Shown here piece after piece: positions 25,601 to 28,600 of a stretch of 64,000 nt of DNA (its first letter is position 1; every line of letters begins with the position of its first letter). Position numbers: made by a program. This DNA comes from Escherichia coli (lineage in GTDB: Bacteria > Pseudomonadota > Gammaproteobacteria > Enterobacterales > Enterobacteriaceae). The stretch is taken from the NCBI RefSeq assembly GCF_009931435.1, contig NZ_CP043414.1; one strand, 5' to 3'.

Positions 25601-28600
25601 TTACCAAAGAGGATATTCTGGGTTTCCTGGCTGTAAGAAATGCGAATGGCATGACGGGGATGGCGCATGCTATGTCTTATGGTCATGTGGAAATAGTGAA
25701 GGCCATGCTGGACCGTCTCTGCTCGATGAAGGGGGAGTTTAATATTACCAAAGACTATGTCCTCAATAATATACTGGCTTCAAAAAACGGCAACGGCTGG
25801 ACAGGGATATCTTTAGCCATAGCGCACGGACATGTGGAAATACTGAAGACCATACTGGACGCGCTCCCCATGCTGAATGATAATTTTGACATTACCGGCG
25901 CGGATATACAAAAGTTTCTGTTTGCAAAAATCGACGAAGACATCTCGGGTTGGACCAAAGGTATGGACAGAGGGAATAAGGACAAACTGATAAGCATGTA
26001 CAAAATGCTGTTCGATAACATACTGATGGATAATAAGTCAGATATTCCTGTTGATTTGCTGAGGGAATTAAATATTGTCAGCCATATTGTATTGACAGAA
26101 ACTGGAAAACCAAAAACAGACGAAATAGCAAGGCAGTCTGAAACCAGACTCACCTACGGACAACTCCGGCAATGGAGTGAACCGTGTGTACGGCGGGCGG
26201 CCAGGAGTTTAGAGGATTACTGTCGGAACCTAAACATTAATGTGGACACTGTCAAACCCTACCTGACCCCAGACGGGCTTACTCCCCTCGGCGTAGAGAT
26301 GCGGGATAATGTAAAAGTGCCGGGGCTCACTGTTGTGGAGTAAGGTCCTGCACATCCCGTGGCCCCCTGCATGGCTATAGCATGGAAAGCGGAAGAAAAA
26401 GCGCAATGAGGTCGTAGGACGAACGGTTCGGGGAAGGCTGAAGAGTACGTATCTGGTCCTGAAGACCGGATAAACCTTCATCGGTCCAACGTTTAAGCCA
26501 CTTGTAGCTCGTGGCAGGAGAAATGCCGTAGTGACGGACCCTGTAAATAATTCTGTGTAACTGCCCACGATTAAAGGTGGCCGCTCAGGCGGTCACCGTA
26601 TTCGATAATAAATTGTGTGATTCATAGACATCGTTTCAATTTTCTCAGCTCAAGTTCAAGCTGGTTATTCTGTTCCTGTATATGCTCCTCATTGGGCTGA
26701 TAGTTTGCGTGAACGGCATCAGAGTATGGCGTTTTCTTAGCAAGTTCAAAGTAGCCCGCCATCGGAGTTATCAGCCACCCACAGCTGGTCAGGATGTTCT
26801 GCCACGAACTGACGATTCACACAGTCGCCTGCGGCAACGACTTTCCTGCTGACTGTAAACAGAACGACGGTCGGCGGTGAAATAACGGTCTTTGCCCTCA
26901 CCTACGCCATGGCCCAGCGCCCGGCTCATGTCTTACATCACGTTAGTAGCCATCGCTTTCACGCGGGTATCCATTGCGGCGTCGTTCAAAACCATACCTC
27001 CCCAGCCGCAAATACCGGATAACATGATACTTCAACAATAAGATTGGTGCGTGGATGATAGATTGCCAAATAATAATCCATCAAGAAATAATGACAACAA
27101 AAAACATCAAGCATTCCTAATGTTATTTGGCCATATAAAACATTAATAACTCTTGACCTTTCCTGACATTTTCCATATTCGCAATCATATTCTGTTTAGA
27201 CGTTGTTTATAAACATCATGCATAATGAAATCGTCATGTTATTTGGCGATATAAAAAAGTCTTTGAAAATACTCTCTACAACAAGTGCAGTTATAAGCTT
27301 GTTGTGACTGAGCGTCCTTGTGATTTAAAGATATTATCGTTCTTCATCAGATGTAATAACTCAGGAAATTATATTTTCAGGGTGACAGGCTAATCAAGAA
27401 TGATTCTTTTTTATAAGCAATAACCGAATGACTGAATTGTTATATTTCTTTATTCAGCTGCTTAAATATAAACTTTGGAGAATTATGAAACTCAAACATG
27501 TCGGAATGATTGTCGTATCTGTGTTGGCGATGTCTTCGGCTGCGGTTAACGCAGCCGAAGGTGATGAGTCAGTTGCGACCACCGTAAATGGCGGTGTTAT
27601 TCATTTTAAAGGTGAAGTGGTAAATGCCGCTTGTGCGATTGACTCAGAATCAATGAACCAAACGGTTGAGCTGGGTCAGGTCCGTTCTTCTCGCCTGGCT
27701 AAAGCGGGTGACCTCAGTAGCGCTGTAGGCTTCAATATCAAGCTGAATGATTGTGATACCAATGTTTCCAGTAATGCGGCTGTTGCATTCCTTGGGACTA
27801 CTGTCACCAGTAATGACGATACGTTGGCGCTTCAGAGTTCAGCGGCAGGCTCTGCCCAGAATGTCGGTATCCAAATTTTGGACCGTACGGGGGAGGTATT
27901 AATACTGGATGGGGCAACTTTTAGCGCTAAAACTGACTTGATTGATGGCACGAATATACTGCCATTCCAGGCTCGTTATATTGCCCTCGGGCAGTCAGTG
28001 GCCGGTACTGCAAATGCAGATGCGACCTTCAAAGTCCAATACCTATAATTCAGTATTCAGGTGGCTATACGTCATCTGAAATTAAAACAGGGTGTGTGTG
28101 GCATGGCTACTCACACCCGAAAAAATTCATCAATGTTTATCTCATTATTACTAAGGAATGACTTATATTTTGGAACGATATGAAAAAATCATAGAGTATC
28201 TAAACGATTAATAAACAAGGCAGTTAAAATTACTGTGATTTTAAAAATCACTCTGAAGACAATTTTTTATTTCAATAGAGAACCAAGTTTTATTACCAGC
28301 GCATTAAGTCTGGAAACCCGGCCATCCGCCATAGCATTAGCAATATTTACCATTTTCTGATGTGACGGTTTCCCCCGCTTAGCCTATCAACACATGGAGA
28401 ACACATCAGATGCAGACGACTCGTACGCCCTACTCTGTTTCTTTTATGGCGACAGTATTACTTTCATTGATCTTTCTTTGCCATAGTACCATTGCCAATG
28501 CAGCGGTAGCTCTAGGTGCAACTCGTGTAATATTTCCAGCAAATCAGAAACAGGTTTTATTGCCTGTCACGAATAATGATCCTGCCAGTGTCTATCTTAT

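Follow-up and report, generated by a model that had tools for sequence, protein, structure and literature searches.

Truncated fragments between an ankyrin-repeat gene and the F9 operon

Within a 64,000-nucleotide stretch of the Escherichia coli chromosome (contig NZ_CP043414.1; referred to here as the window, with all coordinates being positions in it), a short patch of pseudogenes separates an ankyrin-repeat gene from the F9 fimbrial operon. An earlier note on this DNA had described the patch, then placed at 26400-26990, as insertion sequence (IS) debris, with fragments of a transposase helix-turn-helix (HTH) and an IS3-type catalytic motif in several frames with stops, and had read it as an older insertion, possibly the original boundary of an island next to the fimbrial operon. 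We compared the patch with 5426 E. coli genomes and 72,556 plasmids, using for each element the product name that the Prokaryotic Genome Annotation Pipeline (PGAP) gives in RefSeq records. The mosaic is common to 17 complete RefSeq E. coli genomes, which match an 801-bp query end to end at 96.8-99.1% identity. In these 17 genomes PGAP lists, from left to right, the ankyrin-repeat gene, three minus-strand pseudogenes ("helix-turn-helix domain-containing protein," "IS481 family transposase," and "alpha/beta hydrolase," all incomplete), and the F9 operon, consisting of a fimA-like gene, chaperone, usher, ydeS, ydeR, and ydeQ and followed by ydeP, safA, and ydeO.

Six-frame translation revealed, within 26396-26858, four relics of transposases or IS ends, which occupy three reading frames of the minus strand; every fragment is bounded by stops. 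Together with an adjoining hydrolase fragment, this makes five relics, derived from three IS families (IS481, IS256, and IS3) and one hydrolase gene, and the interval should thus be annotated as five separate pseudogene fragments instead of the three that PGAP lists. The relics and the DNA around them are as follows.

26396-26539, minus strand: relic A, HTH/leucine-zipper region of an IS481-family transposase, residues 34 to 81 of 384, cut on both sides
26537-26613, minus strand: relic B, terminal 77 bp of an IS256-family, ISEc39-like element, with its outer end (GACCCTGTAAAT...) at 26537
26614-26769, minus strand: relic C, final 156 bp of the IS481-family element ISEc18, 92% nucleotide identity to ISEc18 copies
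26770-26858, minus strand: relic D, 89 bp from within an IS629/IS1203-like IS3-family OrfB, residues ~92 to 121 (30 codons)
26858-27028, minus strand: relic E (not IS), interior of an alpha/beta-hydrolase gene, residues 136 to 192 of 352, PGAP "alpha/beta hydrolase, incomplete"
26344-26395: unassigned 52-bp spacer between the stop of the ankyrin-repeat gene (26343) and relic A, with matches confined to the 17 mosaic genomes
27029-27101: unassigned AT-rich spacer of ~70 bp from the hydrolase relic to the point where core homology begins, with an alignment to Nissle/K-12 recognizable from about 27085-27102
27102-27427, plus strand: conserved upstream region of the F9 (fml/ydeQRST) operon, where core DNA begins on the right of the variable segment; context rather than debris

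The matches to the IS481, IS256, and IS3 families lie far beyond chance, which bears out the description of the patch as IS debris, and both motifs named in the earlier note are present, on the minus strand and in different frames (six-frame translation and DNA comparisons). They do not, however, belong to the one element which that note implied: the HTH is of the IS481 family and separate from the IS3-type piece. The proposed extent likewise holds for its left two-thirds, whereas the right third (26858-26990, continuing to 27028) is the hydrolase relic, so that the debris does not directly abut core DNA; this relic and ~70 bp of AT-rich DNA intervene. Two pieces present here, the ISEc18 end (26614-26769) and the 77-bp IS256-family end (26537-26613), were missing from the earlier description.

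In a tblastn search with five reference proteins, each relic was found once in the window (E values from 1e-10 to 3e-24) and nothing else matched; no intact copy is present there. Read along the minus strand, the order is hydrolase, OrfB piece, ISEc18 C-terminus, IS256 end, and IS481 N-terminus, which is collinear with no single element. We consider it very probable that the interval is an "IS graveyard," in which nested transposition and subsequent deletions brought together at least four IS relics and one cargo or resident gene where a variable segment has its right end. With the same high confidence, the sequence suggests ordinary, non-functional genomic debris without any sign of function. 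The finding is real but already known in kind, all pieces coming from described IS families or from a common hydrolase gene.

Identity of the relics

The translation of relic A, 26539-26396, reads RHYGISPATSYKWLKRWTDEGLSGLQDQIRTLQPSPNRSS. As is typical of the N-terminal part of IS481-family transposases, it contains both an HTH (Pfam HTH_28, 26.4 bits; cut-off, 25) and a leucine zipper (LZ_Tnp_IS481, 22.7 bits; cut-off, 22.2), and it matches positions 21 to 62 of the 284 in the NCBIfam profile transpos_IS481 (E = 3.4e-6), a fragment score far under the 224-bit full-length cut-off. The transposase on plasmid CP099182 (WFX79322.1, 384 amino acids), which represents the IS481-family transposase of IncI-gamma/K1 plasmids, shares the HTH/leucine-zipper region (residues 34 to 81) with relic A at 86.5% nucleotide and 75% amino acid identity (tblastn against the whole window, E = 5e-17), but relic A keeps just 48 codons of it. 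Since it is only 34.5% identical at the amino acid level to the N-terminus of ISEc18, relic A stems from a different element than relic C. The idea that the two are halves of a single IS481-family element was therefore rejected, the more so as their order is inverted.

Relic C holds the complete 25-bp terminal inverted repeat of ISEc18 (26614-26638), the stop codon (26622-26624), and the final 48 codons, which are 85% identical to the last 48 residues of the ISEc18 transposase (amino acids 276 to 323; tblastn, E = 9e-22). Intact ISEc18 copies are 1020 bp long and have perfect 25-bp inverted repeats. In an alignment of five copies, homology begins exactly at TGTGTGATTC and the flanks diverge outside it; because the copies agree inward of this point and differ beyond it, position 26614 is the terminus of ISEc18. 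Relic C thus has the same terminal inverted repeat, starting with TGTGTGATTC, and the same C-terminal residues as ISEc18, but it retains only 156 of the 1020 bp, lacks the HTH, the DDE core, and the second end, and is fused internally to the IS3-family fragment. PGAP accordingly labels it "IS481 family transposase, missing N-terminus." The partner end of ISEc18 is absent from the window, leaving one inverted repeat where an IS481-family element has two, and no frame of 26340-27060 contains a match to an rve-type integrase core (Pfam and NCBIfam), the catalytic part of IS481-family transposases. No clear target-site duplication was observed among the intact ISEc18 copies examined.

Relic B comprises the final ~13 codons of the transposase and a hairpin with a 9-bp stem (GGTGGCCGC/GCGGTCACC). 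Four independent IS256-like copies have a common sequence from GACCCTGTAAAT inward and diverge in their flanks, left of GACCCTG; because they agree inward of this point and differ outside it, position 26537 is a true IS256-like terminus. A terminal inverted repeat next to the transposase C-terminus, as expected for the IS256 family, is present (the corresponding end of ISEc39 is 35 bp away from the transposase stop), and the Mutator-type transposase gene of this family is missing from the 77 bp that remain. Relic B shares its end with ISEc39 at 88% identity (copy in Nissle 1917), but keeps only those ~13 transposase codons, and is 98.7% identical to a longer IS256-family fragment in FUJ80154.

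Solitary IS256-family ends recur in E. coli: a 77-bp copy lies beside yjhR in K-12 (locus L007, 2501-2577), and many genomes have a 60-bp relic with 91.7% identity downstream of djlA (locus L008, 1501-1560). The relic beside yjhR, which is found in K-12 and more than 1000 other genomes, is 100% identical to relic B and ends at the same cut nucleotide, although in K-12 the cut is made by truncated yjhR, whereas in the window it is made by the terminus of ISEc18. In addition, a TAATAA motif adjoins the ISEc18 terminus in three of the five ISEc18 copies. The shared cut and the TAATAA adjacency are hints of a target preference of ISEc18. The further speculation that ISEc18-type elements target IS256-family ends sequence-specifically, and that the truncation of yjhR in K-12 is the scar of an ISEc18-anchored deletion, we regard as improbable; if it were true, the window would hold a surviving intermediate that explains a K-12 pseudogene.

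Relic D is the IS3-type motif of the earlier note, and the translation of 26865-26770 reads TVSRKVVAAGDCVNRQFVAEHPDQLWVAD / NRQFVAEHPDQLWVAD. It ends at the motif DQLWVAD, which carries the first catalytic aspartate. At the nucleotide level, ~90% identity links it to the IS3-family copies, labeled IS629 or IS1203 by PGAP, that occur in 3589 of the 5426 E. coli genomes (18 such copies in EDL933), and it is 89.9% identical to an IS3-family element on pAPEC-O1-ColBM; at the protein level, the region is 81% identical to residues 90 to 121 of OrfB (tblastn, E = 1e-10). The match to the NCBIfam profile transpos_IS3 (positions 199 to 222 of 369, E = 0.017) is weak because the piece is short. The sequence reaches only the first Asp of the DDE triad, that of WVAD, and homology is restricted to 26770-26858, with no OrfA, programmed -1 frameshift site, or terminal inverted repeats. 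Relic D therefore shares with the IS629/IS1203 group the segment RPDQLWVAD with the first catalytic Asp, but keeps 89 bp, without OrfA, the frameshift site, the other catalytic residues, or inverted repeats. Judging from these similarities, we are certain that it derives from an IS629/IS1203-type element and is not a functional IS3 member. A single decayed IS3 element as the source of both motifs was rejected, because the HTH is of the IS481 type and, being 3' of the OrfB piece in coding-strand order, is not collinear with it.

Relic E, with an in-frame stop at the position of Y167 in its homologue, is 85% identical at the nucleotide level to a hydrolase gene on pHNAH212872-4 and 81% identical to copies on plasmids of Leclercia, Pantoea, Salmonella, and Enterobacter (81% amino acid identity; tblastn, E = 3e-24). 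We also considered relic E as a positional orthologue of the "acetylxylan esterase" of Nissle 1917 and rejected this, given 54% amino acid identity over 28 residues and a location at the opposite end of the interval.

As catalytic cores and paired ends were tested for and are absent, none of the relics is a functional member of an IS family, and with no complete transposase, DDE triad, or pair of ends left in any relic, nothing in the patch can move or make protein. The patch is passively inherited.

Junctions and proposed history

Two of the junctions coincide with true IS ends, namely relic A|IS256 (GTAGTGACGGACCCTGTAAAT) and IS256|ISEc18 (CGATAATAAATTGTGTGATTCATAG), and thus point to nested insertion, of an IS256-like element into an IS481-like element and then of ISEc18 into the IS256-like element. 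The remaining junctions, of which 26769|26770 and ~26858 were inspected base by base, join interior to interior and therefore represent scars of deletion or illegitimate recombination.

The first three steps can be read straight from the junctions. A minus-strand IS481-family element, represented by relic A, was in place first. An IS256-family element then inserted at codon ~34 of relic A, giving the junction 26536|26537, where the IS256-like element begins with its true terminal nucleotide directly against interior sequence of A. Next, ISEc18 inserted 77 bp into the IS256-like end, the interior of which meets the terminal TGT of ISEc18 at 26613|26614. Finally, deletions or illegitimate recombination probably removed ~85% of ISEc18, the remaining nest, and most of the IS629-like element, with likely scars where relic A is cut at codon 81 (26395|26396), where the ISEc18 interior joins OrfB codon 121 (26769|26770), and where OrfB codon ~92 joins hydrolase codon 192 (~26858).

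Several observations weigh against the reconstruction of an IS graveyard formed in this way. No less-decayed intermediate, such as an intact IS256-like element in relic A, was found among the 5426 genomes and 72,556 plasmids, which yielded only the 17-18 genomes with the identical mosaic; the anatomy of the junctions is the only guide to the order of events; and since at most one end per element survives, target-site duplications cannot be checked. The mosaic may also have been imported ready-made after assembly elsewhere. Furthermore, 125 bp (26344-26395 and 27029-27101) have no assignment, and consensus scans returned a few promoter-like sites at 27055-27097, as well as a minus-strand promoter-like site (26639-26612) within the ISEc18 inverted repeat.

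The variable segment between hipA and the F9 operon

In comparison with K-12 and Nissle 1917, core homology ends at 14748, just past hipA, and resumes at 27102; the break on the right, at 27102 (or 27117), was found by megablast in 4893 of 5426 genomes, at ~86-88% identity. Synteny and homology thus break where an island boundary was proposed, but no direct repeats, inverted repeats, or att-like sites bounding the variable segment were found in 14000-28000, and no integrase was found in the segment as it occurs in the window. The "island" is a hot spot of recombination and insertion between hipA and the F9 operon, that is, a hot-spot mosaic and not a classical integrated island. The interval spans 0.5 kb in K-12, with an AraC-like fragment, and 2.5 kb in Nissle 1917, with esterase, LysR (partial), and SDR (short-chain dehydrogenase/reductase) genes, while in strains with the rare F9 allele described below it extends to ~6.5 kb (2013C-4282), 12.35 kb (the window), or ~25 kb (R32_14_1F). 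This lineage-specific content fits published F9 cluster types with differing upstream regulators (PMC7766294): enterohemorrhagic E. coli (EHEC) has an AraC-like gene between hipA and fmlA, and the type named after extraintestinal pathogenic E. coli (ExPEC) appears to contain an insertion and differs in its transcriptional regulator. Compared to these hipA-fmlA intervals (EHEC, SMS-3-5, and ExPEC types; PMC7766294), the one studied here has the same chromosomal position and equally lineage-dependent content, but consists of a 6.5- to 25-kb segment with leucine-rich repeat (LRR) and ankyrin genes that ends in IS debris, without an adjacent regulator gene.

Strain N96 is especially informative in this respect. 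While its flanks are 99.2% identical to those in the window, it lacks the DNA from 18864 to 26857-26861, an 8.0-kb block containing the LRR gene, the ankyrin gene, and the four IS relics. This block is carried by 17 genomes and is missing in the one genome, N96, that has the same flanks. Since the absence ends at the IS/hydrolase junction, the N96 junction lying within 3 bp of OrfB|hydrolase (26858), the IS debris forms the right end of a presence/absence block. At the left end of the block, 18863, homology breaks off in N96 as well as in 2013C-4282. The earlier idea of a right-hand island edge by the fimbrial operon can thus be retained for the variable segment (core DNA from 27102) and for the 8-kb block of N96, though for a hot spot rather than a single island. 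The N96 junction joins two truncated genes and the identity of N96 to the window (98.4%) falls inside the range of the block-bearing strains (97.1-99.1%), which favors the view that N96 lost the block; because the junctions coincide almost exactly, a block-insertion model is still alive.

The F9 allele

The F9 operon in the window (27102-36600) is a divergent allele, ~87-91% identical to that of Nissle 1917 and most E. coli strains and 92.6% identical to that of K-12; by contrast, the identity of hipBA is 95.6-96.3%. This rare allele was found in 18 of 5426 complete genomes. No homologue of the AraC-like HTH fragment of K-12, or of the LysR, SDR, and esterase genes of Nissle 1917, was found anywhere in the window.

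The conserved DNA preceding the F9 major-subunit gene contains a 45-nucleotide direct repeat (27096-27140 and 27212-27256, 76% identity) with the core ATGTTATTTGGC(C/G)ATATAAAA, which may represent a pair of regulator-binding sites.

Alternative explanations

That the resemblances are chance matches in non-coding DNA, in which no IS was ever present, might be suggested by the shortness of the fragments (30 to 57 codons) and by weak profile scores, such as the E value of 0.017 for the IS3 profile and an IS481 profile score far under the full-length cut-off. Nevertheless, the fragments are 86-100% identical over 77-164 bp to annotated IS copies, with E values from 1e-21 to 1e-63, and homology begins exactly at known element termini, which refutes this explanation and leaves it a practically negligible likelihood. 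More deserving of attention, though in our view still unlikely, is the scenario in which the mosaic took shape in another replicon or species, for example on a plasmid, and was decayed before it came here. It would have formed the right end of the 8-kb LRR/ankyrin block when illegitimate recombination placed that block at a preexisting junction like that of N96. In favor of this, relic A and the hydrolase relic have their nearest relatives on plasmids, every relic differs by 8-14% from any intact E. coli copy, and N96 has the same flanks without the block, with a 3-bp coincidence that is unlikely for the end-point of a random deletion; the homology of 2013C-4282, too, breaks at the left end of the block. 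On the other hand, the two truncated genes at the N96 junction do not make an intact empty site, the nested flank identity of N96 favors secondary loss, and no two relics were found together on a plasmid or in another record.

A different question is whether the relics have been co-opted as a promoter, a terminator, or a binding region for H-NS or another regulator, serving the F9 operon or the convergent ankyrin gene in place of the AraC-like or LysR-type regulator genes. The thought arises because other E. coli strains do have regulators in this interval (AraC-like in EHEC, a different one in the ExPEC type [PMC7766294], and a partial LysR-family gene in Nissle 1917) and the window has no homologues of the K-12 and Nissle genes, and it could draw on an enrichment of promoter-like hexamers in 26200-27500 (8 seen versus 2.6 expected) and on the 9-bp-stem hairpin inside the IS256 relic. 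Seven of those eight sites, however, are located at 27055-27397, in the AT-rich DNA to the right of the relics, the sole terminator-like match (26645-26664) is weak and not above shuffled expectation, and no Rfam family was detected in 26000-27600 at E ≤ 1. Moreover, N96 has lost all four IS relics yet keeps an apparently intact F9 operon and upstream region. We therefore consider co-option highly improbable and retain the reading of the patch as non-functional IS debris.

Other features of the variable segment

At its hipA side, a 3.19-kb unit (14749-17938) that is missing in 2013C-4282 and N96 is bounded by ~48-bp imperfect inverted repeats (TGTCAAAGCTCAGTG... / ...GAGCCTCTACA) with ATGTT on either side. 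It encodes an ISNCY-family transposase (16427-17926, minus strand) and, as a passenger, a protein with a SIR2_2 domain (14868-16220, minus strand; Pfam E = 3.5e-26), which corresponds to the PADLOC candidate defense system PDC-S25 (E = 2.5e-82). The unit is an IS with a putative anti-phage gene as cargo, and its insertion point is exactly the core/variable junction on the hipA side.

Pieces of paralogous Xre-type HTH/antitoxin genes lie at 18559-19048 and 23490-23636 and share a 67-nucleotide repeat (18914-18980/23493-23559, 91% identity). Between them, the LRR gene (19692-23246), with 60-nucleotide tandem repeat units, is split by an IS21-family element of ~1.95 kb (~20690-22642; istA, 21533-22555; istB, 20754-21536) and is uninterrupted in R32_14_1F and 2013C-4282. 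Directly left of the debris, 24379-26343 encodes a 654-amino-acid ankyrin-repeat protein (Pfam Ank_2, E = 4e-13) without a PADLOC match; in 2013C-4282, a 639-bp deletion (25767-26404 in the window) joins this gene to the IS481-type HTH relic. Together, the ankyrin and LRR genes look like candidate effector-type cargo. Farther to the right, near ydeM/yddA, an ~11-kb segment (42879-54008) is missing in R32_14_1F, where its flanking sequences are adjacent.

Implications for the hipA-F9 hot spot

The earlier suggestion of an older insertion is right as to age, in that 17 genomes share the mosaic while the nearby IS21, ISNCY+SIR2, and integrase/ABC-3C insertions are strain specific, but not as to number, for at least four elements of three families took part. 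The lineage has lost the regulator gene that adjoins the F9 operon in other E. coli strains, and the relics show where, on the right, an 8-kb LRR/ankyrin block ends whose presence varies among strains sharing this rare F9 allele. Predating the strain-specific IS21, ISNCY+SIR2, and integrase/ABC-3C insertions, the debris provides a relative chronology for the hot spot; of little importance on their own, the relics are useful as landmarks in the history of the region between hipA and the F9 operon.

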